This document shows, in pieces, positions 30,480 through 64,000 of a stretch of 64,000 bases of DNA; the first letter of the stretch is position 1, and every line of letters begins with the position of its first letter. Source of the stretch: Escherichia coli (GTDB taxonomy: Bacteria; Pseudomonadota; Gammaproteobacteria; Enterobacterales; Enterobacteriaceae); NCBI RefSeq assembly GCF_041248615.1, contig NZ_CP158426.1; one strand, written 5' to 3'. The notes beneath the pieces were generated by a model. That model made no database searches. It was not told where the DNA came from and saw only the letters and a list, made by a program, of their open reading frames with translations. The translations under genes were made by a program, and so were the position numbers.

Positions 30480-31712
<1,233 letters not shown>

Positions 31713-41027: not shown

Positions 41028-41037
41028 TATGGCGTCC

Positions 41038-42522: not shown

Positions 42523-42698
42523 TACGTTTTCCTCAGTAAGTCGCCGGGAGACAGCATGCCCGGTGTGCTTTTATCTTCATCCTGCAGGCAATCACAGGAC
42601 GAGCCGTTACATCACTGACAGTATGTGAGGCAACATAAATCCCCGTCTAATCACATTAACGACGTTTTTAATGTGGGATTGTTATCGAAAAATAGTGA

Positions 42699-45357: not shown

Positions 45358-46200
45358 GTAGCAAAAAGCCGCAAAGGAATGCGGCTTAATGGGCTGGGGG
45401 TACTAAACCAGTAAAGGTTTAGTCAGTAATATTAGTGAAGCAGAGCAAGTATCGAACAGTCATATTCCTGTAGTGGTATTAAGACAACCTTAAGAAGGGA
45501 CTGATGTATAGCTACTCTTGTATACCCATCCATGGAAAATTCGGTTGTATTGCCGGGTTGATATGTGCAGGTTGGTCCCGACCCAAGAAGTTTTTACTGT
45601 GAAAATTGTCAAACTATATCAATGTGGTAACAGCTTCTCTTGTCCCTTTGGTTATTTCAAATTGGACCGGGCTATCTGTTGCAACACGGTTGCTCTGCTT
45701 GAAACAGAGTTAACATATGCAACATCAGATACTTTGAGTTTGATCAGATCATAGCCTCGTAGCTTACTGTCCAAGGTCATATTGAACAGAGTTAAATCGC
45801 GCATTTTACCTTCCATTTCAAGCCTGATTCGGATCCCCCCTGATATGAGATATCTGAAGTGGTCTTTTTGGTCAGTGATACTTACAATACGGTCTTTGTC
45901 CCACGGTGACGTGTTCATACTCAAAGCTCCTGTAATGTTGGAGATTTGAGCATGGTTATCCCTCATGAGCGAGGAACGGACAATGTCCCTTGCGCGATCC
46001 AAGATTGATTTTTCTTATTAAATTAAGCTATGGCTGACCTACGAACGATAGGCAAAATGCTCCTAAAGCTACGGCTTATGACAGTAAAAAACATATTGAT
46101 AAAAATCTGAGCTGGTTTAGAATGCTATAATGGAATAATTATTTATTTTCGGCCTTCAGTTTGATCATTTTTAGAAATCACCCTTTTGAAGGAATCTACA

Positions 46201-46995
46201 ATGGAATCAGAAGAAACGAAAGAAGAGAGTTATCAACAGCGTTCGGAGTTTATCAGAAAAATAATTCAACAGCCTGTTGAGGGTGTCATATCTTCATGCA
46301 CTATACCAAAAAAAATAATTCAATTTTGGGATTCATCCAATACTATCCCTAATGATGTCAGACATTGCATGAAATCATGGCGTATCTTAGAACCTTTTGG
46401 GTATGAGTATTTACTATATGATTTCGTTAGCGCCCAAGAATTTATTAAACATAATTTGGGTGAAACATACAGTGAAGCTTTTGCCAAGTGTACTCATCCT
46501 GCTATGCAATCAGATTATTTCCGATTATGTTATATCTCGGTAAACGGGGGATTTTATGTTGACACTGATGATGTTTATCTGGGTAGTGAGATAAGTAGTT
46601 TTTTCACGGATGATAAGTTAAAAATACAACCTTTATGCTACGATATTTCCACCGATTCTATGATTCCACCAGAAATTTTTACAAAGGAAAATACTTATGA
46701 AGAATCTTGGATTTTTTATTTCAACAACAACCCGTTAATTGCTCCGCCTCATCATGTTATCATTGATAAGGCACTAGAGCAATCCACATACTTACTTAAT
46801 AAATCAAGCTATCCTCTCACAGATATTCAGTCAACAACTGGTCCTGGTAATCTATCTAAATCTATTTTCTCGTGTCGCGAGGAAATAGATTTATTATCCC
46901 AGATTACGGTAGTATCAAACTGGCAAGATATTGCAGAAACTAAGTGGGATTTAGAATACAGAGCTGATTCTAGAAATTGGCGCTTGATGAATTAA
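46201..46995 (+). CDS. DXD-motif glycosyltransferase (Gly_transf_sug-like)
   Basis: QFWDS...AMQSDYFRLCYISVNGGFYVDTDDV motif pattern; GAAGGAA RBS before ATG 46201 (track start 46186 is TTG); AT-rich. Confidence 0.55.
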   Translation: MESEETKEESYQQRSEFIRKIIQQPVEGVISSCTIPKKIIQFWDSSNTIPNDVRHCMKSWRILEPFGYEYLLYDFVSAQEFIKHNLGETYSEAFAKCTHPAMQSDYFRLCYISVNGGFYVDTDDVYLGSEISSFFTDDKLKIQPLCYDISTDSMIPPEIFTKENTYEESWIFYFNNNPLIAPPHHVIIDKALEQSTYLLNKSSYPLTDIQSTTGPGNLSKSIFSCREEIDLLSQITVVSNWQDIAETKWDLEYRADSRNWRLMN

Positions 46996-47010
46996 CATGG
47001 ATTTTTAATA

Positions 47011-49212: not shown

Positions 49213-49490
49213 TCATTAGAGTGAAAAGTAAATATTAGTAAGGCACTGGTAAAAATGTAGACACTATCAGTGCCTTAGTAGTTATCCCTCTGGATGGTTT
49301 TTTGACAATAATTTCCGTTTCTGGCACGGAACGGACAGAAAGCAGGGCCACCAAATCTCTCACGAGCCAAAAACCTAAATTATGATCTGACAGATACATG
49401 TATCAATGAAACTGTCGCTGTCAGATCAATTACGCCTTACTATCTGAAAATTATTTGATTTTCTGCATCGTGCATTCAAATTAACAATGT

Positions 49491-50342
49491 TCAGGAGGCA
49501 TAAACTGAAAGGAGTTCTTTAGCTGCCAATTGACCAAGTGCGTTGGCTGCAAAAGGACTGTCACCTGTCAGTACCTTACGATCTTTGTATACGCTTCCTT
49601 TAATATCATCATTAACAATATTCATCCCCATTTGCTTAAGTGCATCGCCAAAATACCATGTGAGATGGCCCGGCATATAACCAATGTCAGGCGTCTGCTT
49701 ATCAGCTGAATCAGGGAAAGCGCAAATAGAATACTCTTTTAGAGGGTTTTCACCATTGCGCAGCGAAAGGAATGCTGCTGGGCCATGGCAAAGGGATATG
49801 ACGAAGCGGTCATTGTCCATGAACCAGCGAAGAGTATCGGCTACTGCGCTGCTTTCTGGCAGCCCAATCAGTGCGCCGTGGCCACCAGGAATAAACACGG
49901 CAGCATATTCACTTTGCTTGTTCAGGCTATTCAATACATCAGACAATTTTTCAGGATTTTGGAACTTGTCTCTATACCGGCTGAAAAATGGCATAACTTT
50001 CTCATCCTTGTGCGGCATGGCCCAGTATTCGAACTTTGTCATGTAACCTGAGATTGTCGCAATGTCAAAATCAAAACCAGCAGCATGCAGGTGATACATT
50101 GGAATAAGCGTTTCAACAGGATGGTTTCCCGTTGAGAACAGAGCCCCGCTATCAGTCATCAGGTAACGCTCATCCGCAGCGATGACCAGCACCTTCTTCC
50201 CTCCCATGCACTGTTTGGGATAGTCGTAGTCACTAAGGTCAGATACGGGGCTGGTAAACTGACTAAGGGAATAGTCAGAGGGGAAAAATGCGTTTTCTTC
50301 AGCATGATCCACTTTCGGATGTTTACTTTTATCATTTGTCAT
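49491..50342 (-). CDS. HchA/Hsp31-like glyoxalase (DJ-1/PfpI family), island-borne paralog
   Basis: ORF 49491..50504; start placed at ATG 50342 (MTNDKSKHPKVDHAEENAFFPSDYSLSQFTSPVSDL...), 283 aa, strongly resembling recalled E. coli HchA including ...SLCHGPAAF...; the longer ORF reads into the IS2 end. Confidence 0.85.
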   Translation of the reverse strand: MTNDKSKHPKVDHAEENAFFPSDYSLSQFTSPVSDLSDYDYPKQCMGGKKVLVIAADERYLMTDSGALFSTGNHPVETLIPMYHLHAAGFDFDIATISGYMTKFEYWAMPHKDEKVMPFFSRYRDKFQNPEKLSDVLNSLNKQSEYAAVFIPGGHGALIGLPESSAVADTLRWFMDNDRFVISLCHGPAAFLSLRNGENPLKEYSICAFPDSADKQTPDIGYMPGHLTWYFGDALKQMGMNIVNDDIKGSVYKDRKVLTGDSPFAANALGQLAAKELLSVYAS

Positions 50343-50514
50343 TACGTATTCCTCGTTGATTGGTGTTAACTCTCTTTCTCGGGCCTGAATTCGCCTGTTA
50401 TATGGGCGACCAGGATAGCCTGATAGACTGGCCCCATGAATCTCCAGACAACCAATATCACTTAAATAAGTGATAGTCTTAATACTAGTTTTTAGACTAG
50501 TCATTGGAGAGCAG

Positions 50515-50880
50515 ATGATTGATGTCTTAGGACCGGAGAAACGCAGACGGCGTACTACACAGGAAAAGATCGCTATTGTTCAGCAGAGTTTTGAACCGGG
50601 AATGAAGGTCTCCCTTGTTGCCCGGCAACACGGTGTGGCAGCCAGCCAGTTATTTCTCTGGCGCAAGCAATACCAGGAGGGAAGTCTTACTGCTGTGGCC
50701 GCAGGAGAGCAGGTCGTTCCTGCCTCTGAACTTGCTGCTGCCATGAAGCAGATTAAAGAACTCCAGCGCCTGCTCGGCAAAAAAACGATGGAAAATGAAC
50801 TCCTTAAAGAAGCCGTTGAATACGGGCGTGCAAAAAAGTGGATAGCGCACGCGCCCTTATTGCCCGGGGATGGGGAGTAA
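50515..50880 (+). CDS. insC: IS2 transposase OrfA (InsC)
   Basis: [53 protein letters not shown]... matches recalled IS2 InsC. Confidence 0.85.
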
Positions 50881-51743
50881 GCTTAGTCAGCCGTTGTCTC
50901 CGGGTGTCGCGTGCGCAGTTGCACGTAATTCTCAGACGAACCGATGACTGGAAAGATGGTCGCCGCAGCCGTCACTCAGATGATACGGATGTGCTTCTCC
51001 GTATACACCATGTTATCGGAGAGCTGCCCACGTATGGTTATCGTCGGGTATGGGCGCTGCTTCGCAGACAGGCCGAACTTGATGGTACGCCTGCGATCAA
51101 TGCCAAACGTGTTTACCGGATCATGCGCCAGAATGCGCTGTTGCTTGAGCGAAAAACCGCTGTACCGCCATCGAAACGGGCACATACTGGCAAAGTGGCC
51201 GTGAAAGAAAGCAATCAACGATGGTGCTCTGACGGGTTCGAGTTCCGCTGTGATAACGGAGAAAAACTGCGAGTCACGTTCGCGCTGGACTGCTGTGACC
51301 GTGAGGCACTGCACTGGGCAGTCACTACGGGCGGCTTCGACAGTGAAACAGTACAGGACGTCATGCTGGGAGCGGTGGAACGCCGCTTCGGCAACGAGCT
51401 TCCGGCGTCTCCAGTAGAGTGGCTGACGGATAATGGTTCATGCTACCGGGCTAATGAAACACGGCAGTTTGCCCGGATATTGGGGCTTGAACCGAAGAAC
51501 ACGGCGGTGCGGAGTCCGGAGAGTAACGGCATAGCAGAGAGCTTCGTGAAAACGATAAAGCGTGACTACATCAGTATCATGCCTAAACCAGACGGGTTAA
51601 CGGCAGCAAAGAACCTTGCAGAGGCGTTCGAGCATTATAACGAATGGCATCCGCATAGTGCACTGGGTTATCGCTCGCCACGGGAATATCTGCGGCAGCA
51701 GGCCAGTAATGGGTTAAGTGATAACAGGTGTCTGGAAATATAG
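50838..51743 (+). CDS. insD: IS2 transposase OrfB (InsD, DDE integrase domain)
   Basis: 301-aa ORF overlapping orfA in another frame, as in IS3-family OrfAB arrangement; DDE-type catalytic region. Confidence 0.85.
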
Positions 51744-52342
51744 GGGCAAATCCACCTGAGTAGTGGTAGTCTCTTCCATACGGTTGCGTACGTATCTCAG
51801 GTGGTTTGCTACAGCATGCGGAGATAGTCCCAGTAAACCAAGAACCACTTTAGCTTTTGATGACTCATACCCCCAATCTGAACACTCCTTTAATACCCAT
51901 ATTGCCGAATACAGGAATCATAATGTCGTGCAAAATACCACTAACAAAATTATGACAATTTAATAACTTTGAACGTGGCTTTGTGTTCCAGTTTTATGCC
52001 AGGAGAAATCATTCGATATCTTTATAAAATATCGTTCTAACTGTAAGTAATTAATATGATTTTTCTCATAAAAAAACTTAAAATCAGTTAACTTCAGCCC
52101 GGAATATGCGTTCACTGAGCGGCCTCTTCATGAACGAAACCGAGAAAAAATAGGCTACAGTCACAACCACACTGTAGAGCAACTTCTCTCACGTGCTGTT
52201 TCAGAGAATAGATCTTCTTGCATCTGAAGAATGGTATCCAGAGCTATCCTGATCACCCCTGAATGCAATAGTTGCGTATACTAGGCGCATGACAGAATCA
52301 TAAAATGAGAGCTATCCCTTATTATCATGACTTCAGTAAAAT

Positions 52343-53098
52343 TTAAATTTGCATTGAGGTAGCGATATCGAGACGTTGCAGTTCGTCAATCGTGTAGATG
52401 CGGAACACATTCCTGTGGCGGGTTTCCAGTGGGATGTGTTGATGATTCACGATGACGTACTGGATGCTGTCAAACAGCCGTTCAAGACCGAGTTTTTTTT
52501 GCGGGTCTGGCACAATATAAAAAACGTAGATCCAGTCTTTACGCGTTCGGGCCAGTAAATGACTGGCTATGATCGACTGGTAACGGGCTTTGGTTTTCAG
52601 ATGGCGCTCGGTCTCGATGGCGATCACCGTGCCGCTGGGGAGGGCAATTAGCCCGTCCGGGCGGTGACTGACCTGATAACGACTCAGGAAAGTTGTGCGA
52701 TCGCCATGTATCCAGCCGCATGCGCCTTTTTTTTCGAGGATGATCCGCGCCATCTGATTATCAAGGTGATGTTCCAGCGTCCAGCCTGTGAGTTTTGAAG
52801 GCTCAAACCGGGCCGGGAAAATTTCATCATCAGGCTGTATTACGACCGCCAGCCCGTCGTTGGTTATTCCCCACAATGAAATTTTCTTCGTACGTGATAC
52901 CAGGACGTGTTTTTGTATTAACCCCATTCCCTCAACTTTTGAAAGCAGGGAATACAGTGATTTATGATCCCTGAAGCCGAACAGCAGCATCAGTGTTGTA
53001 AAATCACTGTACGTTTCTTCTTTCAGGAAATTCAGCAGTCGTATTATCTTCTCGCGATGTCGGGTCTGGCGCTCGCGGTATGCGGTGATAAGCATCAT
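52343..53098 (-). CDS. Hypothetical wHTH-containing protein adjacent to T4CP gene (relaxosome/replication-relaxation-like?)
   Basis: 251-aa ORF immediately downstream of the coupling protein gene; N-terminal segment looks like a winged helix; possible PD-(D/E)xK-like RPDG...IAIETERHLK; family not confidently recognised. Confidence 0.35.
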   Translation of the reverse strand: MMLITAYRERQTRHREKIIRLLNFLKEETYSDFTTLMLLFGFRDHKSLYSLLSKVEGMGLIQKHVLVSRTKKISLWGITNDGLAVVIQPDDEIFPARFEPSKLTGWTLEHHLDNQMARIILEKKGACGWIHGDRTTFLSRYQVSHRPDGLIALPSGTVIAIETERHLKTKARYQSIIASHLLARTRKDWIYVFYIVPDPQKKLGLERLFDSIQYVIVNHQHIPLETRHRNVFRIYTIDELQRLDIATSMQI

Positions 53099-53106
53099 TT
53101 CCCCTT

Positions 53107-55032
53107 CTAAAAGTTCAGTAACGAGGGATGATCCTCTTTACCTGCACCTGCACCTGCACCTGCACCTGCACTTGTTGTTGTGTGTTTCTCGTCCGGCTTG
53201 TCAAAAAAGAGATCGGGTTGTGTTGTCGTGATAACTGATGTTGATGACGGTCCGGATGACATTTCTTCCTCGTCAAAATTCAGGGCAATGTTGACTCTTG
53301 CGGCGGTGGCGGCAACAGCGGGCGATACGGCACAGATCGCCAGTTCCCTTTTTTTAACCCTGATGGGAGAAATTAGTGAAGCAGAGGGGAGGGCTTTGGT
53401 GGTGAATATAAAACTGACAAAATCAGGCAGGTTCAGCACCATATTACTGTCGATAAAGAAACGCTCGGCCTGCCTGATGGTGCGTTCACTATCGATAGTC
53501 TCTGTCAGCACCGCATCTGTTTTGGCTTTGCGGACTTCGTCATCGACTAATATGGTGCCTGACATTCTTGCCACCCAGTCAGCGGTATCAGGGTCCATGA
53601 CACGATAAACCAGCTTGAATTTGGCATTCTCCACAACTGCACCCACCACGGCATCGCTTTTCAAATCCGCCGGGCAATCTTTTAAATCGGCAATGGATTG
53701 GTGGTCCATAATAATGTGTACACCTTTATCCCGTGCCGCACCTAAGCCTTCCAGCGCAGGCTTGGATAAATGGTATTTCAGTTCGGAAAGGTAAATAGCA
53801 ATAGGGCGGGGTGTGTGGTTTACCCGATCGCGCCTTTCTGCCAGCTGGTACAGGCGAACCAGCAGCATGCGCTGAGCGGTAATAATTTTGCTGTTGCGCA
53901 TCGAGCCAATCACATAGCAGCAACCACCGTTATCAAATATTGTATTGAGGGAAAATCCTGCCGGTGCATTGATGGCATTGAGTAAGGCCAGCTCCTCAAT
54001 TTTCCCGAAAAAGGCTTTTATCTTATCAGCGATACTTTGGACGTATTCCCCGTTATACACATCCCGAATGGTTGAGGTCGTATTACGGGCGACAAATTGT
54101 GCAGCTATTCGGGCTGCTTTGCGATCGTCAATGCGATAAAAGTCAGACTCTTGTCCTTTCTCTGCCAGACTGAAACCCGCGACAAAAAGTTCTTCCAGTT
54201 CATCAGCGGTGATATCGTTAATCAGGTTTAGCTGGTATGCCTGTTTCCTCAGGTCAATTAGGGCAAAGGATTTCCCTGCATCCTCGCAGGCTTTCCGGTA
54301 AAGGTGTGGGGCCCACTCATCATCTTTGGGGTCCATAACAAATACGCCTTCACCGGCCAAAATACTCTGATAAAGTAATATCCCGGTGGCCACCCCTTTA
54401 CCGGCCCCCGTGGTCCCGATGATATCGGCATGTTGTTTTTGCCAGTCTTTTAACGGCAGGTACATCGGCTGTTTCATTCTGTTCATGCCGATAAAAATAC
54501 CTTTACTCAGGTTAATATAATCCTCCGGGTTATAGTGCAATGTTTCCGGTAGCAGCGATTTCACCGTTCGGACATCAGTACGTAATTCCCTTTCCAGAGT
54601 GGTTTTTCTGACGAACCGACTTTTTACTTTATCGAGTTCAGGTGTTAACACCCTGCGCAGAAGAATATGGAAAACAAAACCGGCTGCGGTAGAGGTAATC
54701 AGTATCAGCCAGGAGAGGACAGTATTGCTGGTGGCTATCTTTATTCGGTATATCCATTGAAATAATTCGTTCACCACGGGCGCTATTGTGCCAAACAAAA
54801 AGCACAGTATGGAAAAAACTATCACCAGCTTTTTCCATAAAGGGGCTTTGAGTCGTTCATCGCTTTTCATCGACGCGAAGAATGGCATGGTCAGCCCTGA
54901 GAATAGCGCCAAAATAGGTTGATGCTGGTGCATAAAAACGAGCAGTCCCAGCATGCCGTCCACTATCGGTGATAGTGAAACGATCAGCTTATTTAACACC
55001 ATAATGCTTCCTTTATCGGCCATTCGCCCCAC
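53107..55032 (-). CDS. virD4: Type IV coupling protein (VirD4/TraG-like ATPase)
   Basis: N-terminal hydrophobic segments, Walker A IIGTTGAGKGV, DPK motif (VFVMDPKDDEW); C-terminal (Ala-Gly)5 tail. Confidence 0.75.
   Translation of the reverse strand: MGRMADKGSIMVLNKLIVSLSPIVDGMLGLLVFMHQHQPILALFSGLTMPFFASMKSDERLKAPLWKKLVIVFSILCFLFGTIAPVVNELFQWIYRIKIATSNTVLSWLILITSTAAGFVFHILLRRVLTPELDKVKSRFVRKTTLERELRTDVRTVKSLLPETLHYNPEDYINLSKGIFIGMNRMKQPMYLPLKDWQKQHADIIGTTGAGKGVATGILLYQSILAGEGVFVMDPKDDEWAPHLYRKACEDAGKSFALIDLRKQAYQLNLINDITADELEELFVAGFSLAEKGQESDFYRIDDRKAARIAAQFVARNTTSTIRDVYNGEYVQSIADKIKAFFGKIEELALLNAINAPAGFSLNTIFDNGGCCYVIGSMRNSKIITAQRMLLVRLYQLAERRDRVNHTPRPIAIYLSELKYHLSKPALEGLGAARDKGVHIIMDHQSIADLKDCPADLKSDAVVGAVVENAKFKLVYRVMDPDTADWVARMSGTILVDDEVRKAKTDAVLTETIDSERTIRQAERFFIDSNMVLNLPDFVSFIFTTKALPSASLISPIRVKKRELAICAVSPAVAATAARVNIALNFDEEEMSSGPSSTSVITTTQPDLFFDKPDEKHTTTSAGAGAGAGAGKEDHPSLLNF
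53141..53170. repeat. Hexanucleotide repeat (CCTGCA)x5 inside the 3' end of the T4CP gene
   Basis: cctgca repeated 5 times in frame, encoding AGAGAGAGAG at the protein C-terminus. Confidence 0.95.
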
Positions 55033-55552
55033 GACATCGCCCCCTCAATTCGCCCCACGGTGTTGGGCGAAAAGCTGGGGTGAAAGCAGGGGCAAACAGA
55101 GGTGGCTGCGGTGCAGCCATGTGCCGGTAGATAGACTTTCCGGCCCGAAACGACGTGCACCAGTTCATGCGGGCTGGACGCCCTTATTGCCTGGCGCATG
55201 GGGGTAATGGCGTGGCTGTACGCCGCGCCAAAACCCCCAGGGTCAACGGCGGCACACCGTCGCCCGCTACGCGCGACCAACCCCTTTAAGACGCGCGTTT
55301 CGCCTGTTTTTTTCTCGCAAGCTCCAAAAAACGGGAACGCTGCTTTAAAGGGGTTGGTCGCGCCTGATTGGTAATATCCCCGCTGGGGCGGGAAATATTA
55401 CCTGGCTTGACGGTGTGCGGGGCAAGCCCCCCACAAAAAACGGCACGTGGGCGTGCCTTTTTGCTCGCTGGGGCGGCAAAATTTTTGCGGCTCCCCCGGC
55501 CTGCTTAATTCGCTGTGGGCGAATGTGCGCAGATGGATGCGGTACCTGAAAA

Positions 55553-55633
55553 TTAACAATTTCTGCGAAATTGAATTTTCTGTCCGCGTTCCACTGGCTT
55601 ATTTCACGGCTTAACAATTTCTCCGAAATTGAA
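55553..55633. promoter_or_regulatory. Two copies of palindromic operator-like site TTAACAATTTC(T)GCGAAATTGAA upstream of the T4CP gene
   Basis: 55553..55575 and 55611..55633 differ at one base; each contains inverted repeat caatttc-N3-gaaattg; lies in a 680-bp non-coding gap. Confidence 0.4.
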
Positions 55634-55709
55634 GCCAGAAATTAGCCAGCCTCAACCCCGCCGTCTGTCAGTCTGTGGCGCTGTGAGGCATAGTGTAATG
55701 TCCGGTGGT

Positions 55710-56015
55710 TCACACCTGTTCGCGATATATTTCAGCCCGGCATTCCTGTTCAGCCTTTAATACCTCCCGGTAGGTTTCATCATCGACTTTCGTTCCCTGA
55801 TTTTCGGCGTATCGTCTGAGTTTGTCAGCATCCTGTTCATTAAGACGCGAAAGATGATGTCGCAATAAACTGATCAGTCTACTTTCATAGATCTCATAGT
55901 AAAGGCCGCATCCCTGATTCGCTTCCTCAGAGAACTTTCTGTACACGGCTCCGACCGATATTCTGTCATGATGCATTGAGTGGATGTTGGAAATAAAAAG
56001 GTTTTCTTTATCCAT
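55710..56015 (-). CDS. Hypothetical protein (101 aa)
   Basis: ORF only; position between TrbM-like gene and T4CP. Confidence 0.3.
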   Translation of the reverse strand: MDKENLFISNIHSMHHDRISVGAVYRKFSEEANQGCGLYYEIYESRLISLLRHHLSRLNEQDADKLRRYAENQGTKVDDETYREVLKAEQECRAEIYREQV

Positions 56016-56063
56016 ATTTATTTCTCCCCAAAAAAAGGTACTAACATAATGGCCGGGGGGTTA

Positions 56064-56366
56064 TTATCCTCTGAGCCTACCAAATCTGGACAGGATTTTA
56101 TTCACCGCCTCTGGGTCGGCACTGGCACATTCTCCGAGGAAAGCTTTTCTGGCATTCAGTGTATGACCGGGTAAAAATCCGTGTTTATTCTTTTTGACGA
56201 TATTAAAGAAAGTTTTTTCAGCTGAATGGCACTCACTCCCTCCACTGTTTCCGGTCGCTTTCCCGTACATACAAAGCACGACTTCGCATGGGTCAGAGGC
56301 GAAGCAATAAACAGGGAGCACAATGGCAATGCACAGCATTACCGTCGCAATGGAGGCGTATTTCAT
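56064..56366 (-). CDS. Secreted TrbM/KikA-like protein (putative)
   Basis: 100-aa ORF with N-terminal signal peptide and conserved Cys pattern (DPCEVVLC); position after virB11 as in IncN-like transfer regions. Confidence 0.4.
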   Translation of the reverse strand: MKYASIATVMLCIAIVLPVYCFASDPCEVVLCMYGKATGNSGGSECHSAEKTFFNIVKKNKHGFLPGHTLNARKAFLGECASADPEAVNKILSRFGRLRG

Positions 56367-56410
56367 GATGAAGTCCTTACCATAATTTCTGTACCAGGAT
56401 ATCGGTATAT

Positions 56411-56806
56411 TTAATGTGAAAAATAAATATAGGTATCGCTACACGTCAGGCACTGAGTTGCAGGTTGATATTCAATAACACCATTTGCGCCATGCTGGCG
56501 AAGCCAGCTTGTTGCAGTAAAGAATGCTGTGCCTGATGGTGCAGCAACAACAATACGCGTCGAATGCGCAACTGCGTAAAATACGTCGGGGGTCCAAAGT
56601 GTCTCGTTAAACTGCGTTGAGTGAACGGACAATAACCACTTCCCATTAACGATTGGGGAAGGATTAATAACGGGGGTGTCATTCCATTGCGATAAATTGA
56701 TATTCACTGACTCGCCCGATTTATCCCATTCAACAGATACCGGTGGGGGTGGTGACGAACAGCCGGTAAGCACCATTAAAAATAACAGTATATTGATGGT
56801 TTTCAT
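56411..56806 (-). CDS. Lipoprotein of unknown function in T4SS operon
   Basis: Lipobox LTGC after signal peptide (MKTINILLFLMVLTGCSSPP); start overlaps virB11 stop. Confidence 0.5.
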   Translation of the reverse strand: MKTINILLFLMVLTGCSSPPPPVSVEWDKSGESVNINLSQWNDTPVINPSPIVNGKWLLSVHSTQFNETLWTPDVFYAVAHSTRIVVAAPSGTAFFTATSWLRQHGANGVIEYQPATQCLTCSDTYIYFSH

Positions 56807-57849
56807 TATGCTTTCATCTCCTCGAAGAAGGCATTACGGTGCAGTGGCCGGAAATAGATATCATTCATTCGGCGCACGTTGCCGTCTAAATCAATACTGA
56901 CAATAACATCCAGACTGTCCAGCACTTTGCGTAACATAAACGTGTAGGGCAGCCGGGCGCATTGTGGGTTTTCATAACAGCGAGTAATAAAACCGTCTAC
57001 CGCTTCTATTGCTGAACCCGCATGCAGGGAAGTCATACTGCCTTCATGGCCGGAGCCGGTTATTTTGAGAAAATCCCAGGCTTCACCACCGCGCACTTCG
57101 GTTAACAATATACGGTCGGGGTTCATGCGATAATTCCAGCGCAGAAGACTGGCTGGCGTCACAATCGAGCCTTTTTCATCTGCTGATTCGGACGGATAGA
57201 AGAGGTGGACATAGTTTTTATGAACAAAAAAGGTGATTTCCGGATTATCTTCAATGGTCGTAATACGCAAATGGCGAGGAATAAAACCAATCAGCATCTT
57301 CATGTAGGTTGTTTTCCCGGTACCGGTTTCCCCGGCCACCGCGATAGTTTTACCGTACTCCACGCACTTCTCCATAAAGCGCGGGATATCTTTGGCGGTA
57401 TACAGGCTCAACAATTCCTGATCGTGCGTCTGGGTGGTTTCTGAGCCCGTCACCCTGTTATAAAAACCGGCGTCGATATAGCTCTGGTGGGGAATTTGTA
57501 CCTGTGACGGCTTTCGGATAGTAATGGAGACGGTGTTGCGCTCACAGGCCGGAGGGACAATAACCTGACAACGTTCACCGGATTCCAGCGTGGCTGACAG
57601 CCCCGGTTTGATATCTTCAATATTGTCGCAGTGATGCTTTGCCAGGCATCTGGCGAAGTTGTAGCACCCCTCATAATCCAGCGAAACACTGTGCAGCTCC
57701 CAGATACCATTAATTTTGGTAAATAGCTCGCCCGGGCGGTTGACGGCGATTTCTGTTAGTCCAGGATGAGCAATAAAATCGCCAAAAAATCGCTGTGTAT
57801 AGCGATCGAGAGAGATGTTTTTCATGTGATATCCTTGTATCGGATACAT
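56806..57849 (-). CDS. virB11: VirB11-family T4SS ATPase
   Basis: Walker A GETGTGKTT, Walker B-like RILLTEVRG, His box GSMTSLHAG; 347 aa. Confidence 0.85.
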   Translation of the reverse strand: MYPIQGYHMKNISLDRYTQRFFGDFIAHPGLTEIAVNRPGELFTKINGIWELHSVSLDYEGCYNFARCLAKHHCDNIEDIKPGLSATLESGERCQVIVPPACERNTVSITIRKPSQVQIPHQSYIDAGFYNRVTGSETTQTHDQELLSLYTAKDIPRFMEKCVEYGKTIAVAGETGTGKTTYMKMLIGFIPRHLRITTIEDNPEITFFVHKNYVHLFYPSESADEKGSIVTPASLLRWNYRMNPDRILLTEVRGGEAWDFLKITGSGHEGSMTSLHAGSAIEAVDGFITRCYENPQCARLPYTFMLRKVLDSLDVIVSIDLDGNVRRMNDIYFRPLHRNAFFEEMKA

Positions 57850-57862
57850 TTGTGGAGGGAGT

Positions 57863-58870
57863 ATGTCGAAGACGAAAGTACTGTTCGCTTATTGCCATGA
57901 ACTCGGGCGCTGTTTGTCCATTGATGAAGCGCGAATGGAATTTTTTTCCAGAAAGCCGGAAGAAAGGAAGCGGTTCACTTTTTCATGTAGCGATCGCAAC
58001 TGTGATGTCACCATTAGCGGTGTTAACTATCACGTCAAAGCTGAAGATGGTGAGAAATTCAAGGCTGCGCACTTCCGTTCACCTCATCCTCACAAGTTCG
58101 GATGTGAATGGCTCGAATTCACCGAGGATGCGGATCAGGACCGGCGTCCAGACGAGTCAGAGGCTGATTTCACAGAACGAAAAGCAAAGCAAAAGCTGAC
58201 GGACTATATCAACTGCTTTGACCCTTCAATAGATGATCCTGATGGCGAACCATCCGATCCCGTGAAGCTTGTTACGCCTGTTCACACAAGAAAAACTGTC
58301 GGGGATGATGATAAAACGGGTACAAATGAAGAGCCCCGCTGGAGTCGCTACACGCGAACCAACCAGCTTCAGCGACTTATCGACACATGGCAGGAAGCGA
58401 AAGAAACGCTGCCTCAGGATGAGTTCCGGGCGTTGAGACTCAGGATCATGCACCATGATCAGGTCTATCTACATGAATATATAACGCATATACAGCGTGG
58501 ATTGGCTAATCCGTATTCGGGCGTCATCTATGGTGGTGGGACCCTAATGCATCGGTATGGTCGGGGTTTTCTGATTAATTTCTTTGATAAACATGAGGGG
58601 AAGCCTGTTCGCCTGTATGTCAGTAAAGATCTGATGGCGAAAGGACGGTTTGGTCATTATATCGATGAGATTCTGGACACTAAAAACGTCAGATATTTCC
58701 GTATATTTTTACTCAATCCGGTTGTTTCCGAACGGGAAAACAGCACAGGAAAAAGCGTTATCAACCTTGAAATATCAAAGCTGCGTCAACTGGCTATTTA
58801 CTACGAACTGAACTCCAGCAGAGAAGATGAATCTTCATCGGTGGAGACGGAGGGGGAAAGTCCGGCGTAG
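57863..58870 (+). CDS. Hypothetical protein (335 aa) encoded antisense inside the T4SS operon
   Basis: Only long ORF on either strand across 57860..58800; acidic stretches; no recognised domain. Confidence 0.45.
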   Translation: MSKTKVLFAYCHELGRCLSIDEARMEFFSRKPEERKRFTFSCSDRNCDVTISGVNYHVKAEDGEKFKAAHFRSPHPHKFGCEWLEFTEDADQDRRPDESEADFTERKAKQKLTDYINCFDPSIDDPDGEPSDPVKLVTPVHTRKTVGDDDKTGTNEEPRWSRYTRTNQLQRLIDTWQEAKETLPQDEFRALRLRIMHHDQVYLHEYITHIQRGLANPYSGVIYGGGTLMHRYGRGFLINFFDKHEGKPVRLYVSKDLMAKGRFGHYIDEILDTKNVRYFRIFLLNPVVSERENSTGKSVINLEISKLRQLAIYYELNSSREDESSSVETEGESPA

Positions 58871-59187
58871 CGGGCTAATGTTGTCACAAGAATGAGTATA
58901 TCGGTGACGTCAGGCAGCGATATCTGCTTATGTGCCAGCCGGATATCGTCCGGGGAAAAAGGCGGTGCATCCAAAGGGCCTTCACTGATGGTGATACAGA
59001 ACGGTTGCTCTTCTCCTGAGTCAATACTGAGTTCTATCAATGCGCCCCCGGCACGATAGCATGTCATGACTATTCTTCTGATTCCGGTAAGGTGTGACAG
59101 TAAGTCGTTGACGACAGCGTTGCTGAAATCGTCCCTTACGATGACGTCTGTCGCCGTAACACCAAACAAAAACTTTCGATTACTCAC
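58801..59187 (-). CDS. Hypothetical protein (128 aa) downstream of virB10
   Basis: ORF start overlaps virB10 stop by 8 nt, suggesting co-transcription; no recognised motif. Confidence 0.35.
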   Translation of the reverse strand: MSNRKFLFGVTATDVIVRDDFSNAVVNDLLSHLTGIRRIVMTCYRAGGALIELSIDSGEEQPFCITISEGPLDAPPFSPDDIRLAHKQISLPDVTDILILVTTLARYAGLSPSVSTDEDSSSLLEFSS

Positions 59188-60430
59188 TCTTCATCCTCAG
59201 CGTGTAGATGCCTGAAAAATCAATATCCTGCCCTGTGACCAGGTTGATGATTTCACCCTGATTTTTGTAGAGCGTCGGTGGGATATTAATGCTGTTTTCC
59301 AGCGTGGTACGTGCCATATCCGCCATAGCCTGACGGCTGTTTTCTGTATAGTCGGTATTCCGATCTTTCTGACCGGCGCTGTTGGATGCCCATGCCCCAA
59401 TATCAGGGATCATACCGACCAGTAATGCACCTCCAAATCGCTCCCTGAAATGCGAGTCTATCCAGCCATCAACGCCAGCCTCGCCCAGTTCTCCGGCAGC
59501 ATTCGTATCGACCAGCGGAATATCAAGGAAAGGGGGCTGGCGGGTACGCAGTTTCGTGATGATGATGAATGCGCGTCCCTGTCCATGCGTCATTCCTGTT
59601 TCTGCACCAGTCTGGTACATCCCCGTGGCGGTGGTCCCTTTTTCTATCAGCTTTGTATTACCGCTGGCGCTCCAGATGTCTTCGGCGATCGTGCAGCGGA
59701 TTTTTCCAGCCCGATCTGAGACAAAACGGTAATCCAGTGAGCAGGGAATAGCGGTATTTTCCGGCACGTACAGATCGGGATTATAAGGAATTCGCCGGAC
59801 CGCTGTCGGGGACTGTTCCGGCTGTGGCGACGAGGTGTTTAGCGGCTGACCGGTATCAGAATATTGTGTCTCTGACGGCTGTCTGGCTGAGGATGCCTGC
59901 GTCATTTCCTGATACCGGGTCCGTACCGGATTTCGTACCGCTGAACCTGAACCCTCCCGGCGCACCAGAAAACGGGCTTTATCTAAGTCGGGCAGAGCCT
60001 CCGATCCGTTGGGTGTCGTACTACCAGGGTTGTTGTCCGCCGGTTCTGGTGTTTTCGCGTCGATATAGTGCGTACCCAGATCGGTACGCTGTCGAGAATC
60101 GGTCCGATCTGTCGGGGCCACAGTTTCCTGAGGCTTTTCTTTACCTGGCTGCCAAAGAAGATTGTGGTATATCCAGTTACCCCCCCACGCCAGTGCAATC
60201 AGGGCAACGGCAGCGAATGCCAGAAAAGCGGTGGCTTTCCCCTGCTGGCGCTTTTTCAGTTTATTGACAGCCGGCTGTATTGGATCGTTATTGTCATCAT
60301 CCTGCCAGGTGTGAAGCACAGCTTCACGCTTTGCGCGGGCCTCGCGCTCAAGCGCAGCAATATCATCATCCTTCTGTGTCGGACAGGACCTGGATTCATC
60401 TGGCACAGGATGCAGATGTTCGTCATTCAT
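59180..60430 (-). CDS. virB10: VirB10/TrbI-family T4SS protein
   Basis: N-terminal cytoplasmic/TM segment, Pro-rich linker, C-terminal VirB10-type domain (…GAETGMTHGQGRAFIIITKL…VDGWIDSHF…). Confidence 0.8.
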   Translation of the reverse strand: MNDEHLHPVPDESRSCPTQKDDDIAALEREARAKREAVLHTWQDDDNNDPIQPAVNKLKKRQQGKATAFLAFAAVALIALAWGGNWIYHNLLWQPGKEKPQETVAPTDRTDSRQRTDLGTHYIDAKTPEPADNNPGSTTPNGSEALPDLDKARFLVRREGSGSAVRNPVRTRYQEMTQASSARQPSETQYSDTGQPLNTSSPQPEQSPTAVRRIPYNPDLYVPENTAIPCSLDYRFVSDRAGKIRCTIAEDIWSASGNTKLIEKGTTATGMYQTGAETGMTHGQGRAFIIITKLRTRQPPFLDIPLVDTNAAGELGEAGVDGWIDSHFRERFGGALLVGMIPDIGAWASNSAGQKDRNTDYTENSRQAMADMARTTLENSINIPPTLYKNQGEIINLVTGQDIDFSGIYTLRMKSE

Positions 60431-60449
60431 GTGTACAGTTCCTCAGCTG

Positions 60450-61349
60450 TTAATTGGTTGCGGTTTTTACCACTCGCTCAACTTGCGGGGAGACTGTGGC
60501 ACCATCTGCGACCTGAACCCTGCCGAAACCACGATTTTCCAGGCCGACCACAGCGCCACCGGAACGGAGGACCAGACGGGGGGTAACTTCCTGAATAACC
60601 AGTACGGTGAAGTTGCCTTTCCTGCGGACACTGCTGTTAACCACATGCTCCTGGCCGTTTAGCTCTTTTGTCAAAGAGGGAATGGATTTGGCTGGGGAGA
60701 AGCCCACGAACGTAAAGCGACCATCGTCATAGGCGAAGTCCGGAACGATACGTGTGCTATTGCTCCCCGGATATTTGAGATAGTCCCAGTTTCGTGGCGT
60801 CTGCGCGGCGTTAAGAGCCTGCTGGATATCGGCCTGCTGTTGTTTCTGCTCCCGTTCCCGCGCTTTGGTTGTGACTTCACGGCCCGATTTTTCGTGTGCT
60901 TCATCGGGATAGCGATAACTCACCTGAAAAGCAGGCTGCTGCGATGATTTTTCATCGATGACGTTTAGCTCGACGTTATACAGCCGCCGAGTGGTAACGA
61001 TTAGCATGTTGGTATGCCAGTCGTGACTGTTGGGAGGAATGACCACCTGCGCTGTATTACCGTCCACTCCGGGGGCACCCTGAATCAGGGCTACCGGGCG
61101 GATACTGACCCGGTTTGCGTCTGTTGTGGCTTCCCATGCGTCCTCAAAACCTGGTTTAGCACTGATAACCGCTTCGTCATTGTCAAAGATGAGCGTGGTT
61201 ACGAAACCGGGTCGGGTATTGACGACAGTGACGTTAAACGGGTTATAGACAACCTGCTGGAGACGGGCGTCGTAGCGGCTTGCTTGTGGTATTGCAGCAC
61301 CCCAGGCTATACCGCACATCGCCAGTGCGAAAAGGATGATAATTTTCAT
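60450..61349 (-). CDS. virB9: VirB9/TrbG-family T4SS outer-membrane component
   Basis: Signal peptide and VirB9-like domains; position between virB8 and virB10. Confidence 0.75.
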   Translation of the reverse strand: MKIIILFALAMCGIAWGAAIPQASRYDARLQQVVYNPFNVTVVNTRPGFVTTLIFDNDEAVISAKPGFEDAWEATTDANRVSIRPVALIQGAPGVDGNTAQVVIPPNSHDWHTNMLIVTTRRLYNVELNVIDEKSSQQPAFQVSYRYPDEAHEKSGREVTTKAREREQKQQQADIQQALNAAQTPRNWDYLKYPGSNSTRIVPDFAYDDGRFTFVGFSPAKSIPSLTKELNGQEHVVNSSVRRKGNFTVLVIQEVTPRLVLRSGGAVVGLENRGFGRVQVADGATVSPQVERVVKTATN

Positions 61350-62032
61350 TATTCAACTCCTCTGATTTCACGATCTGCCTGCCAACTTGTCACCGTAAAA
61401 CCGAACGGGTTAACTTCCCGCTCTGTATCGCTCATTTCCTTACTTGGGTCGGAGTGGAATGTCAGGTGGGCATCCCAGTATTCTGTACGCGTACTGCTAT
61501 CAGCGAGGCGGCGGATAGTTTTTTTGTAACGGAGGGTGGCGACTTTATCGGGGGCAGTGCCTTCGGTGATCTGATTAGACAGGATGTCGATATGTACGGT
61601 GTGGGCCTCATTCTGGTACACCTTATCCGGGGCGTCTTTTCCTGAATAAAGTGCCAGATAATCATCATTAACCTGAGGGCTGTTATAGACCTGTACCGTT
61701 GAATAATCGTCCTGTAGGGCAGGGTAAATGTAACGTTCACGCACTCTGACGTAACTTGAGGTCATCGCCTTCTGATAAGCTTCTTCCGCTGTCAGACTCG
61801 TTTGTGACGCTCGGGTGACGTGTTCCAACCGTCCGGTATGATTATCAACAGCATACAGCTCAATAACTGTCTGTTTCAGCGGTAATATCAGCACCACAGT
61901 GGTGAGTGCCAGTATGGCAATGAGTAAGCCCGCGCCACCAACCATAAATCCCGCCTTCGTGGCGCGTTTGTCCCGCTCAATCATTTTCTGCTCAAAGGTG
62001 CGGGAATCAGCAATGATTGACTGTTCACTCAT
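61349..62032 (-). CDS. virB8: VirB8-family T4SS protein
   Basis: Single N-terminal TM helix (GFMVGGAGLLIAILALTTVVLIL) followed by a periplasmic domain; position. Confidence 0.75.
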   Translation of the reverse strand: MSEQSIIADSRTFEQKMIERDKRATKAGFMVGGAGLLIAILALTTVVLILPLKQTVIELYAVDNHTGRLEHVTRASQTSLTAEEAYQKAMTSSYVRVRERYIYPALQDDYSTVQVYNSPQVNDDYLALYSGKDAPDKVYQNEAHTVHIDILSNQITEGTAPDKVATLRYKKTIRRLADSSTRTEYWDAHLTFHSDPSKEMSDTEREVNPFGFTVTSWQADREIRGVE

Positions 62033-62162
62033 GATTGTTTAACTCCGCCATCATCTGAGGCGTGTTTACCGGGATGCCATTCCCACTAAAGGCCAGGGGA
62101 TGGGGTGACTGTGCACAGCCGTAAAGCGCGCACAGTAAAATCAGCGCAATCAAGCGTTTCAT
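62025..62162 (-). CDS. virB7: VirB7-like small lipoprotein (45 aa), absent from the ORF track
   Basis: Hand translation of minus strand: MKRLIALILLCALYGCAQSPHPLAFSGNGIPVNTPQMMAELNNHE; lipobox LYGC; stop overlaps virB8 start. Confidence 0.5.
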   Translation of the reverse strand: MKRLIALILLCALYGCAQSPHPLAFSGNGIPVNTPQMMAELNNHE

Positions 62163-62245
62163 GGGATGTTTCCTCAGTGGGTTGGATAGAGGGTAGTGTT
62201 AGCGCCGGGGGGATTGACGGAAATAGTATGCAAGGGATGACAAGT

Positions 62246-63310
62246 TTAACGATGAAATTTCTGAACGGTTGTTTCTCTTGATTTTGCCAGCCGTCGGGCC
62301 TCGTTCCTGGCGATCATTTGCTCAATGGCATACTTACGTGCCTGAGCAGCTCTGTATCCCGGGCCGCTGCCGGGTTTATCTGTACTGGCATCTCTCCATC
62401 CCTGAAGATTGTCCTGAATTGCGCGGTTTGTCTGCTTCCCGGCTCCTGCGGCTAATTTCCCTGCACCAAACGCCGCTGCGCCTATACCCACGGCGGACAG
62501 TCCCTGCATGGAGACAGTCGCTCCCGCCCCGGCTAGTGCTCCGGCCAGTTTTGCGGAAAGGTATACCATTATTGCCGCGCAGACCCCGGCGAGACAGACC
62601 TGAGCGCCTAGCTCCACAATATTAGATTGTGCAGATATTTGTGTGGCAATATCTAAGCGGGAGTTTAAATAATTAACGACCACTCGTAGCGACAATGCAG
62701 AAAACAGAACCGTTAATATGGCTGCGAAAATATTTTGCAGCCAGTTGTTAAACATGGGACGTAAAAAGCCATACATGAGACAAAAGATGAAAACGGGGGC
62801 TGTGATGCTGAGCAGCAAAACCATGACCTCTGCGATCATTGCAACAAAGGCTGTAATAGTCATTAAAACGAATATCCCAAGCCACACATAAAATTGAGCT
62901 GTGATGCCCTCGTCTTTTATGTACGTTGAATTATCCATGTCGTGTAACGTTTTGCCTAATACCTTCGCTTTATCCCATAAGCTATCCAGTAGTTGCCATA
63001 TATTATCGTTGCCGGAAAAGCCGTCTTTTAAGCCATTGATAGCGTCAATGACCCCGTCGAGATAACCGCTGACATTGGCCACAAAGGACAGGATGATGGC
63101 CATTCTTATGATGTCCCACATGACGTCCTCCATGGGTGCGGACAACTTACCTGCCAGGCTCTGGTATCCACGCCACATGATATAAAGTGTCGCTGACGTT
63201 GCCGCCAGTCCCAGCATCATGGCGGAGTATGACATCATCAGTCCCTTTGTTGCGTCGGTGACTCCCCCTATCAGGTGTTTTTCAACACCGATAAATACAC
63301 CACCAGGCAT
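62246..63310 (-). CDS. virB6: VirB6/TrbL-family T4SS inner-membrane protein
   Basis: 354-aa polytopic membrane protein with Gly/Ala-rich C-terminal region; position between eex and virB7. Confidence 0.75.
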   Translation of the reverse strand: MPGGVFIGVEKHLIGGVTDATKGLMMSYSAMMLGLAATSATLYIMWRGYQSLAGKLSAPMEDVMWDIIRMAIILSFVANVSGYLDGVIDAINGLKDGFSGNDNIWQLLDSLWDKAKVLGKTLHDMDNSTYIKDEGITAQFYVWLGIFVLMTITAFVAMIAEVMVLLLSITAPVFIFCLMYGFLRPMFNNWLQNIFAAILTVLFSALSLRVVVNYLNSRLDIATQISAQSNIVELGAQVCLAGVCAAIMVYLSAKLAGALAGAGATVSMQGLSAVGIGAAAFGAGKLAAGAGKQTNRAIQDNLQGWRDASTDKPGSGPGYRAAQARKYAIEQMIARNEARRLAKSRETTVQKFHR

Positions 63311-63320
63311 ATTAACCTCA

Positions 63321-63548
63321 CTATGAATTCAGGTTGGGAGTGGGGGCATTTAACTGTTGAATCTGAAAATGAGCTTCATTGGCATTTTTACAGTTTTCAG
63401 AGGCATCGCCGGTTTTCAGGCATTTTTCATATACTGTTTTCAGCTCATCGGGATGATCTTTGTACCACTGGGTAGTTTTGGTTTCGTCTCTGCAGCCGCA
63501 AATGATGAGGAATAAAATGGACAGGAACGAAAGGGTTAATAAACGCAT
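63321..63548 (-). CDS. eex: Entry-exclusion-like lipoprotein between virB5 and virB6
   Basis: Start placed at MRLLTLSFLSILFLIICGC (lipobox); small lipoprotein at the position where IncN/IncW systems carry eex. Confidence 0.5.
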   Translation of the reverse strand: MRLLTLSFLSILFLIICGCRDETKTTQWYKDHPDELKTVYEKCLKTGDASENCKNANEAHFQIQQLNAPTPNLNS

Positions 63549-63559
63549 GTGAAACTCCT

Positions 63560-64000
63560 TTAACGGTTTAAATCGGAGGTTGGTGCAGTTAACTGCTGCT
63601 GGTTCCACTGTTTGAGACGCTCATCCTCCAGCACTTTCCCGCGTTTTTCTGCCGCCTTCACACTCATTTCCCATTGATCAGTGAGCGTGTTCAGCATCAC
63701 TGATTTCAACTGAATACTGTTGGCAAGGTCCAGCGACTCCTTTGAGTCTTTAGAGAGTGCAATCCGGTTTGAAAGATTATTGATCTCACCCAATGTTTGG
63801 CTGACCTGATCCTGGATCTCGTCAGTCTGCTCAAACTGAATTGCCTTATTGATAACCTGTTGTTTGCAGATATCGGCATAGCTTCCGGACTGCGCCGCGT
63901 TGCACGTATCGAAAACCCGGTACTTTGCGTATAGCGCATCGAACTGCCCGGCGATGCCACCAGAAAGTAGCAGGTCGTTGAGTGTCTGGCCCGGCTTACG
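63560..64000 (-). CDS. virB5: VirB5-like T4SS minor pilin, partial (5' end beyond window)
   Basis: Minus-strand frame is open from window end to stop at 63560 (…GIAGQFDALYAKYRVFDTCNAAQSGSYADICKQQVINKAIQFEQ…); helical, Cys pair; position. Confidence 0.55.
   Translation of the reverse strand, partial: RKPGQTLNDLLLSGGIAGQFDALYAKYRVFDTCNAAQSGSYADICKQQVINKAIQFEQTDEIQDQVSQTLGEINNLSNRIALSKDSKESLDLANSIQLKSVMLNTLTDQWEMSVKAAEKRGKVLEDERLKQWNQQQLTAPTSDLNR

Follow-up and report, generated by a model that had tools for sequence, protein, structure and literature searches.

Positions 52343-64000 of the 64,000-nucleotide stretch of Escherichia coli DNA analyzed here (contig NZ_CP158426.1, assembly GCF_041248615.1; this whole stretch is called the window below) very probably make up one half, that for mating-pair formation and DNA processing, of a ~51.8-kb integrative and conjugative element (ICE) that is inserted at a tRNA-Asn gene, belongs to the family of ICEEc1, ICEKp1, pCRY, pMET1 and p29930, and carries a relaxase of the MOBC family. 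A first-pass annotation of the region had described a VirB/VirD4-type conjugation module, which Pfam and NCBIfam gene calls confirm as an MPF_T system, and had seen no relaxase between the gene for the type IV coupling protein and a neighboring IS2 insertion sequence. The latter statement was wrong, as the 251-amino-acid open reading frame (ORF) at that place matches the MobC_subf model for MOBC relaxases; the same annotation had guessed, in brackets, that this protein might be an unconventional relaxase, and model, MOBC12 motifs and predicted fold indicate that the guess was correct. What was computed here comprises the gene identities, the fold of MobC and its conserved catalytic-type residues, how the origin of transfer (oriT) is built and how well it is conserved, the attachment (att) repeats, and the lack of a second relaxase.

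The identification of MobC begins with NCBIfam NF041423 (MobC_subf), which the 251-amino-acid ORF matches with 362.8 bits against a cutoff of 200 and with model positions 1-240 of 240 covered; PGAP likewise names the gene mobC. Within the protein, the peptides LWGITNDG and SHRPDGLIAL hold WGIT and HRPDG, the two MOBC12 signatures targeted by published primers, of which C12-f ends in tgg ggn ath ac and C12-r is the reverse of HRPDGIIT (PMC3394729). On these motifs the window MobC is assigned to the MOBC12 (p29930 TriL) subclade; MOBC clade C1 takes in the relaxases of ICEKp1 and ICEEc1, and the three classical relaxase motifs are lacking in MOBC as a group (PMC3394729). A structural model (pLDDT 96) predicts a PadR/MarR-like winged helix in the first third of the protein and a restriction-endonuclease-like PD-(D/E)XK domain in the C-terminal two thirds, the latter with conserved acidic and lysine residues of catalytic type, and there is no HUH or three-motif relaxase signature. 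The earlier label of winged helix-turn-helix protein therefore describes the N-terminal third correctly and misses the nuclease domain that makes up the remainder. Among 78 diverse homologues, the least similar of them ~24% identical to the window protein, the residues H110, Q115, P147, D148, E162, E164, K168, R172 and Y173 are near-invariant, and P147-D148...E162-x-E164...K168 is invariant in the MobC proteins of ICEKp, pMET1, Vibrio and a CloDF13-type plasmid. In support of the assignment, 24 of the 78 homologues match the Pfam family Replic_Relax (PF13814). Both the fold and these residues agree with the PD-(D/E)XK class in which a review places the MOBC relaxases of plasmids and ICEs (PMC12857230). 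In the CloDF13 record itself (NC_002119) the mob genes are frameshifted or mis-annotated, and MobC was instead compared with its counterpart on a modern CloDF13-type plasmid (same replicon cluster as CloDF13, cloacin operon, MOB-suite relaxase type MOBC), to which it is 26% identical. A tblastn search with MobC found relatives in 1420 plasmid records, mostly typed as mobilizable or conjugative, which include small CloDF13-like ColRNAI plasmids at ~29% identity. Because the curated MobC model, the MOBC12 motifs and the combination of winged helix and PD-(D/E)XK fold agree, the 251-amino-acid ORF is identified, as far as sequence and model can identify it, as a CloDF13-type MOBC relaxase and not an HUH enzyme.

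The gene immediately upstream of mobC, separated from it by 9 bp, is mobB, whose product matches coupling-protein models of Pfam weakly (TrwB_AAD_bind 31 bits, T4SS-DNA_transf 25 bits) and is 34% identical over 395 amino acids to the MobB of a CloDF13-type plasmid (E 1e-69), or 29% identical over 368 amino acids to that of the CloDF13 record itself. The element thus has the linkage oriT-mobB-mobC together with a MobB-type coupling protein. The same order, together with an inverted repeat that contains two nic sites, has been described for pMET1, HPI-ECOR31 and CloDF13, and the pMET1 oriT, upstream of mobB, is 90% identical to that of HPI-ECOR31 (PMC2262945).

In the window, the predicted oriT core lies in a 707-bp gap (55003-55709) between orf101 and mobB. 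In 100-bp windows, identity to pMET1 is 80-97% across 55150-55600 and 88-97% across 55200-55550, and the flanking genes compare with pMET1 DNA at 77% for virB11, 67% for orf101 and ~53% for mobB and mobC; a non-coding block that is more conserved than the genes around it is as expected of a cis-acting site. The center of the block is nearly invariant among the window, pMET1 and an ICEKp, and it holds a perfect 19-bp inverted repeat that is predicted to fold, as a single-stranded hairpin, with -35.3 kcal/mol (z -5.2). Each arm of the repeat carries GGTTGGTCGCG, a nic-like core (GGTTG/GTCGCG) that agrees with the nic sequence of CloDF13, GGGTG/GTCGGG (PMC5935869), at 9 of 11 positions, so that the plus strand would be predicted to be nicked after position 55356 and the minus strand at the mirror position. 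The CloDF13 oriT has the same layout: nic lies inside one arm of a 19-nt inverted repeat whose arms are 47 nt apart. Two further motifs, CGCCCCAGCGGGGAT (15/15) and GGCGTCCAGCC, are common to the oriT region of the window and that of CloDF13 (positions 9600-9957 of the locus compared, L003). A colinear alignment of the two origins was dropped because they have only short motifs in different order, and no base-by-base homology is claimed. Of the two intervals that had been proposed for oriT prediction, 55033-55709 holds the conserved core; the other, 51755-52343, was rejected, being unalignable among relatives (mean column identity 36%) and containing a single nic-like match at chance level.

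The extent of the element follows from a 17-bp direct repeat. The sequence TTGGCTCCTCTGACTGG forms the 3' end (last 17 bases) of a tRNA-Asn gene that lies beyond the window (window coordinate 81855-81871, ~17.9 kb past its end; 35527-35543 of locus L001), and an exact copy in the same orientation is present at 30114-30130, where 0.01 such matches would be expected by chance. HPI-ICEEc1 and HPI-ICEKp1 are also bounded by a 17-bp repeat (PMC2801613). The exact repeats at the tRNA-Asn 3' end and at 30114-30130 thus make the region the transfer half of a bounded element of ~51.8 kb. According to the RefSeq annotation, gene order past the window end runs from virB5 through the VirB3-VirB4 fusion (914 amino acids), virB2, virB1 (lytic transglycosylase), TraR, DUF2857 and AlpA to ~11 kb of cargo, a tyrosine integrase and the tRNA-Asn gene. 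The integrase that adjoins the tRNA gene is P4-like and intact (423 amino acids; domains Arm-DNA-bind_3, Phage_int_M and Phage_integrase). Thus the backbone of ICEEc1/ICEKp1-type elements, that is the AlpA excisionase, the virB secretion system, oriT and mobBC, is present and in the same order as in an ICEKp. No ybt, irp or fyuA genes are annotated between int and AlpA, and given this lack of the yersiniabactin locus of the high-pathogenicity island (HPI) the element is a relative of the backbone and not an HPI-ICE.

The remaining transfer genes, whose calls come from Pfam and NCBIfam profile scans together with PGAP annotation, are listed with the other features in the table below. They lie mostly where the first-pass annotation had put them and on the minus strand, except that one of its two extra ORFs, of 335 amino acids, is on the plus strand. 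The entry-exclusion-like lipoprotein gene that had been placed between virB5 and virB6 is indeed there, belongs to the EexN family and has the same position in R46; it had also been taken as a hallmark of pKM101/R388-type systems, and in that respect it is not diagnostic, as the arrangement is found in IncX and pMET1 too. The 45-amino-acid lipoprotein corresponds to an ORF (ORF9) that is kept in pMET1, pCRY, ICEEc1 and ICEKp1 and has been proposed in the pMET1 paper as a stand-in for VirB7 (PMC2262945). No Pfam, NCBIfam or PADLOC match was obtained for orf101, and ORFs of 101 amino acids occupy the same position in relatives; in the annotation of pMET1 and ICEKp this position is that of an ORF named 'dpoa decarboxylase'.

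Features of the transfer region and of its element, in window coordinates (aa, amino acids).
Feature	Position	Strand	Evidence and remarks
Distal 17-bp att direct repeat TTGGCTCCTCTGACTGG	30114-30130	plus	Far end of the ICE
ardC, anti-restriction gene	44413-45357	plus	Pfam ArdcN 140.8 bits, MPTase-PolyVal 159.9 bits
IS2-like element, terminal inverted repeats (33 nt)	50433-50465 and 51714-51746
mobC, predicted MOBC-family relaxase (CloDF13 MobC / p29930 TriL type), 251 aa	52343-53098	minus	NCBIfam, motifs, structural model
mobB, atypical type IV coupling protein (CloDF13 MobB type)	53107-55032 (PGAP start 55002)	minus
Predicted oriT core, conserved non-coding block upstream of mobB	55150-55600
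Perfect 19-bp inverted repeat	55271-55289 and 55345-55363		55-nt spacer; invariant in pMET1 and ICEKp
orf101, conserved small ORF beside oriT	55710-56015	minus
TrbM/KikA/MpfK family protein	56064-56366	minus	Pfam TrbM 27.9 bits; same name in PGAP
Cag12-family lipoprotein	56411-56809	minus	Pfam PF13117, 68.9 bits
virB11, ATPase	56806-57849 (PGAP start 57825)	minus	Pfam T2SSE 73.8 bits; 88% identical to pMET1 VirB11
335-aa accessory gene, antisense to operon	57863-58870	plus	Cys/His-rich N-terminal domain, OB-fold-like C-terminal domain
128-aa partner gene	58801-59187	minus	Convergent, 70-nt 3' overlap with 335-aa gene; start overlaps virB10 stop
virB10	59180-60430	minus	Pfam TrbI 142 bits
virB9	60450-61349	minus	Pfam CagX 149.6 bits
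virB8	61349-62032	minus	Pfam VirB8 188 bits
VirB7-like lipoprotein, 45 aa	62025-62162	minus	Signal peptide, lipobox LYGC
virB6	62246-63310	minus	Pfam TrbL 156 bits
EexN-family entry-exclusion lipoprotein	63321-63548	minus	NCBIfam NF033894 76.5 bits (cutoff 33); signal peptide ending in Cys
virB5	63560-64000, cut by window end (gene to 64264)	minus	Pfam PF07996 130 bits (full protein)

To place the secretion system, four of its proteins (VirB3-4, VirB11, VirB9 and VirB6) were compared with those of pMET1, IncX1 pOLA52 and, for the IncN/IncW group, IncN R46. Identities are 77-88% to pMET1, 34-44% to pOLA52 and 22-30% to R46, and on these values the system is closest to pMET1/pCRY/ICEKp1/ICEEc1, then to IncX, and distantly to IncN. 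The fused VirB3-VirB4 gene and the Cag12 and TrbM genes that lie downstream of virB11 are likewise traits of IncX/pCRY. The earlier description of the module as IncN/IncW-like consequently holds at the level of the MPF_T class and not for its nearest relatives. A protein-effector type IV secretion system was also considered and rejected, as oriT, the Mob genes, entry exclusion, the att repeats, int and xis favor conjugation.

In the mechanism that these features suggest, the P4-like integrase and the AlpA excisionase would excise the element at its 17-bp repeats, and MobC would bind oriT upstream of mobB and, with MobB, nick within an arm of the 19-bp inverted repeat. MobB would then pass the DNA to the PilX/VirB system (VirB1, VirB2, the VirB3-4 fusion, VirB5, VirB6, the VirB7-like lipoprotein and VirB8-11), EexN would limit redundant transfer, ArdC would protect the incoming strand, and the last step would be re-integration at a tRNA-Asn gene. 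Within the overall reading, what we infer is nicking by MobC at the predicted position and self-transfer. Because the backbone genes are full length and the att repeats and oriT are intact, the element would be expected to be transfer-proficient; for HPI-ICEKp1, excision as a circle and self-transfer have been reported (PMC2801613).

Several observations weigh against this reading. With two mismatches allowed, the nic-like 11-mer occurs 13 times in the window against an expectation of 10.6, which is no enrichment, and the core was therefore used for its position inside the conserved inverted repeat and not for motif statistics. The shared motifs CGCCCCAGCGGGGAT and GGCGTCCAGCC are ordered differently in CloDF13 relative to the inverted repeat and mobB, which suggests that oriT modules have been rearranged between the window element and CloDF13. 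MobC itself has no match in Pfam, PADLOC or PHROGs and is resolved by NCBIfam and structure only. Within the MOBC family, the evidence for site-specific nicking is biochemical in the case of TraX of pAD1 and genetic, for MobB with MobC, in the case of CloDF13, both of other clades, and the family has no known covalent intermediate between relaxase and DNA (PMC12857230). Finally, an antisense gene splits the operon between virB10 and virB11, and the IS2 copy and other insertions lie just downstream of mobC; either could reduce expression.

These last two observations bear most directly on the possibility that the ICE is correctly identified but is a decaying copy that has lost self-transmissibility, an outcome we regard as unlikely though worth weighing. 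The insertions are substantial: the distance from mobC to the downstream IS2 is ~600 bp, mobC and ardC are parted by ~7 kb of foreign DNA with an integrase fragment, and a further IS3-family pseudogene is found at 30488-31640, near the distal end. Yet compared with relatives every gene for mating-pair formation (Mpf) and DNA processing (Dtr), as well as int and xis, is full length, both att repeats are exact and oriT is intact. The antisense gene inside the virB operon points the same way as the insertions, but it belongs to a virB10-virB11 cassette that is old and kept in place elsewhere, in an E. coli A28 ICE (72% nucleotide identity) and in a Salmonella copy, and thus is not a recent disruptive insertion. 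And while decay is plain in the neighboring tRNA-Asn island of the window, near-identical copies (99.7%) of the present region are found in isolates of unrelated source (human, manure).

It is much less probable that MobC is a DNA-binding accessory of the relaxosome, acting through its winged helix, and that the nick is made by MobB or by a host or helper nuclease. The PadR/MarR-like N-terminal domain would suit such a role, but the C-terminal two thirds have a restriction-endonuclease fold, and the PD...ExE...K residues are near-invariant across the 78 homologues, as expected of a catalytic site. Relaxation of CloDF13 is reported to need both MobB and MobC (Nunez and de la Cruz 2001, as cited in PMC2262945 and PMC5935869), and the lack of a known covalent intermediate, noted above, would also fit an accessory; against this, mutagenesis of the equivalent site of TraX (pAD1) is reported to confirm catalysis (PMC12857230). 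The authors of pMET1 list a separate PLD-family 'endonuclease' in the Dtr group (PMC2262945), but no PLD nuclease gene is annotated in the present ICE.

That the module lacks a relaxase of its own, and so is mobilization-defective or relies on a relaxase outside the window or in trans, as the first-pass annotation had offered, is highly improbable: HUH-type families (MOBF, P, Q, V, H) were indeed not detected in the window by Pfam and NCBIfam, Pfam gives nothing for the 251-amino-acid ORF, and standard typing can mislead, MOB-suite/PLSDB calling the related pMET1 'non-mobilizable', but that ORF is a full-length MobC by curated model, motifs, fold and mobB/oriT synteny, PGAP annotation and Pfam/NCBIfam scans find no other relaxase in the element, inside the window or beyond it, near virB1-virB4 included, and conjugation or self-transfer is described for relatives in which the same mobB-mobC pair is likewise unaccompanied by another relaxase (PMC2262945, PMC2801613).

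The region belongs to a well-studied family of ICEs and plasmids, of which it is an ordinary member that had already been annotated, at ~20% DNA divergence and with different cargo. Positions 52000-64000 are 100% identical to the chromosome of E. coli NRZ14408 (NZ_LT599825.1), and at least 80% of this interval is present in 7 of 5426 complete E. coli genomes; more distant relatives of the region occur in 313 genomes of the same set, mostly on the chromosome. The best plasmid matches are pMET1-like plasmids, with ~77-81% nucleotide identity across the virB genes.

Of the described elements, ICEKp1/ICEKp of Klebsiella pneumoniae and HPI-ICEEc1 of E. coli ECOR31 share with the present element the insertion at tRNA-Asn, the P4-like integrase and the 17-bp repeats. 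In ICEKp the order AlpA, DUF2857, TraR, virB1, virB2, virB3-4, virB5, eex, virB6, 45-amino-acid ORF, virB8-11, Cag12, small ORFs, oriT, mobB, mobC, ardC, variable region is the same, the MobC of an ICEKp variant is 79% identical to the window protein, and the oriT core is nearly identical; transfer-gene DNA of ICEKp/ICEEc1 is ~77-81% identical. The differences are that ICEKp/ICEEc1 carry the yersiniabactin locus, in place of which the present element has other cargo, and that in ICEKp ardC directly follows mobC, whereas here IS2 and ~7 kb of inserts stand between the two. The plasmids pMET1, pCRY and p29930 (Klebsiella, Yersinia) have the VirB3-4 fusion, the 45-amino-acid VirB7 stand-in and oriT-mobB-mobC in common with the present element but are plasmids with a replicon and not ICEs; the pMET1 MobC is 49% identical to that of the window, and pMET1 has its PLD-family gene between mobC and ardC, a gene that the present ICE is without. 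CloDF13 (MOBC11) has the same two atypical Mob proteins (MobB at 34%, MobC at 26%), the same oriT layout and the short oriT motifs, but unlike the present ICE it is a small mobilizable ColE1-type plasmid without a secretion system of its own.

The classical incompatibility (Inc) group closest to the element is IncX (R6K/pOLA52; 34-44% protein identity), in whose PilX system VirB3 and VirB4 are likewise fused, an EexN-family gene stands between virB5 and virB6, and Cag12 and TrbM/KikA genes lie downstream of virB11; the transfer genes of ICEEc1 are themselves named pilX (PMC2801613). Cag12 and TrbM directly follow virB11 in the present element, whereas in pOLA52 they come after the coupling protein, and where the present element has MobC and MobB, IncX relies on the MOBP relaxase TaxC, with Ddp accessory proteins, and on a VirD4-like coupling protein encoded directly after virB11. 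The IncN plasmids pKM101/R46 resemble it in the MPF_T class, the virB-like order, the place of eexN between virB5 and virB6, and the presence of a small VirB7-like ORF, but R46 has separate virB3 and virB4 genes, a MOBF relaxase, a different coupling protein, and no Cag12/TrbM downstream of virB11. No MOBF relaxase of the TraI/TrwC type was found in the present element by Pfam/NCBIfam scans or in its annotation.

The only part of the region that might be new is the two-gene cassette between virB10 and virB11, genes that in pMET1 and ICEKp overlap directly. Neither of its products, of 335 and 128 amino acids, has a match in Pfam, NCBIfam, PADLOC or PHROGs. The N-terminal domain of the 335-amino-acid protein contains invariant Cys and His residues, and its C-terminal domain is modeled confidently, with OB-fold single-strand-binding proteins as the best, though weak, matches in two libraries. 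PGAP gives the partner gene as 88 amino acids (58801-59067); the 128-amino-acid form starting at 59187 is favored because it is conserved over its full length, at 61% and 49% identity, in Serratia and Vibrio plasmid partner ORFs and is annotated as 128 amino acids in E. coli A28 and Salmonella. Beyond the A28 ICE and the Salmonella contig, where the pair lies between virB10 and virB11 as it does here, it is placed differently in a Vibrio pVA1-type MOBC plasmid, a K. aerogenes IncFII pMET1-like plasmid and an F-like MOBF Serratia plasmid, and in all transfer-gene contexts seen the 128-amino-acid gene is co-oriented with the adjacent transfer genes. The 335-amino-acid gene is also found on its own: in integrative islands it borders hotspots of defence genes, and on a Providencia plasmid it lies between toxin-antitoxin genes. 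It is conceivable, as a tentative suggestion, that the pair is a previously undescribed accessory module of conjugative elements, serving for example in the handling or protection of the single DNA strand that is transferred, or in the regulation of transfer by antisense transcription through the operon.

Elsewhere in the element, the ~7 kb between ardC and mobC hold an integrase fragment, GT32, GH16, hchA and IS2. The IS2 of the first-pass annotation is an IS2-like element of the IS3 family at ~50433-51746, ending in inverted repeats of 33 nt, and the GT32 and GH16 glycosyl enzymes stand in a low-GC stretch (0.34-0.38) within 45517-51746. The distal variable region at 32390-38380 encodes a protein with a metallo-beta-lactamase fold and, after it, the three parts of an ABC-three-component (ABC-3C) system, namely a trypsin-like CTD4 protein, middle component 1 and a 1045-amino-acid SMC-like ATPase; this is probably anti-phage cargo. 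At 39697-43592 are genes for a UbiD-family decarboxylase, a UbiX prenyltransferase and a DUF554 protein, with a divergent LysR regulator; the UbiD/UbiX genes look like a putative aromatic-acid decarboxylation cluster. Outside the window, the cargo between int and AlpA (locus L001 24660-33830) consists of two porins, AmiA, an MFS transporter, a FecCD-type ABC uptake system and a LuxR-type regulator with an autoinducer-binding domain, and it occupies the position of the yersiniabactin genes in ICEKp/ICEEc1. A second, degenerate island at 5198-15826 lies at another tRNA-Asn gene (5198-5273); its integrase is frameshifted, it encodes an Rhs core protein, and the matching 17-bp repeat is at 15810-15826; with four tRNA-Asn genes, three of them inside the window, the neighborhood is an integration hotspot.

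More generally, the region illustrates an annotation pitfall. MOBC relaxases are short, are without HUH motifs, in this case are without a Pfam match, and have an N-terminus that resembles a transcription factor, so that the elements carrying them are easily scored as relaxase-less or non-mobilizable. The typing of pMET1 (NC_010726.1) in PLSDB/MOB-suite, as a plasmid with no relaxase, stands beside the presence of mobB, mobC and a full MPF_T system on that plasmid; typing tools appear to miss its MobC clade, the same error that had been made for the present element. Recognition of MobC reclassifies the island, on its sequence, as a probably self-transmissible ICE. The ICEKp/ICEEc1 backbone is best known as a spreader of yersiniabactin and colibactin. 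In E. coli this backbone also circulates without the high-pathogenicity island, carrying in this instance transporters, porins, a UbiD/UbiX cluster and an ABC-3C defence system.

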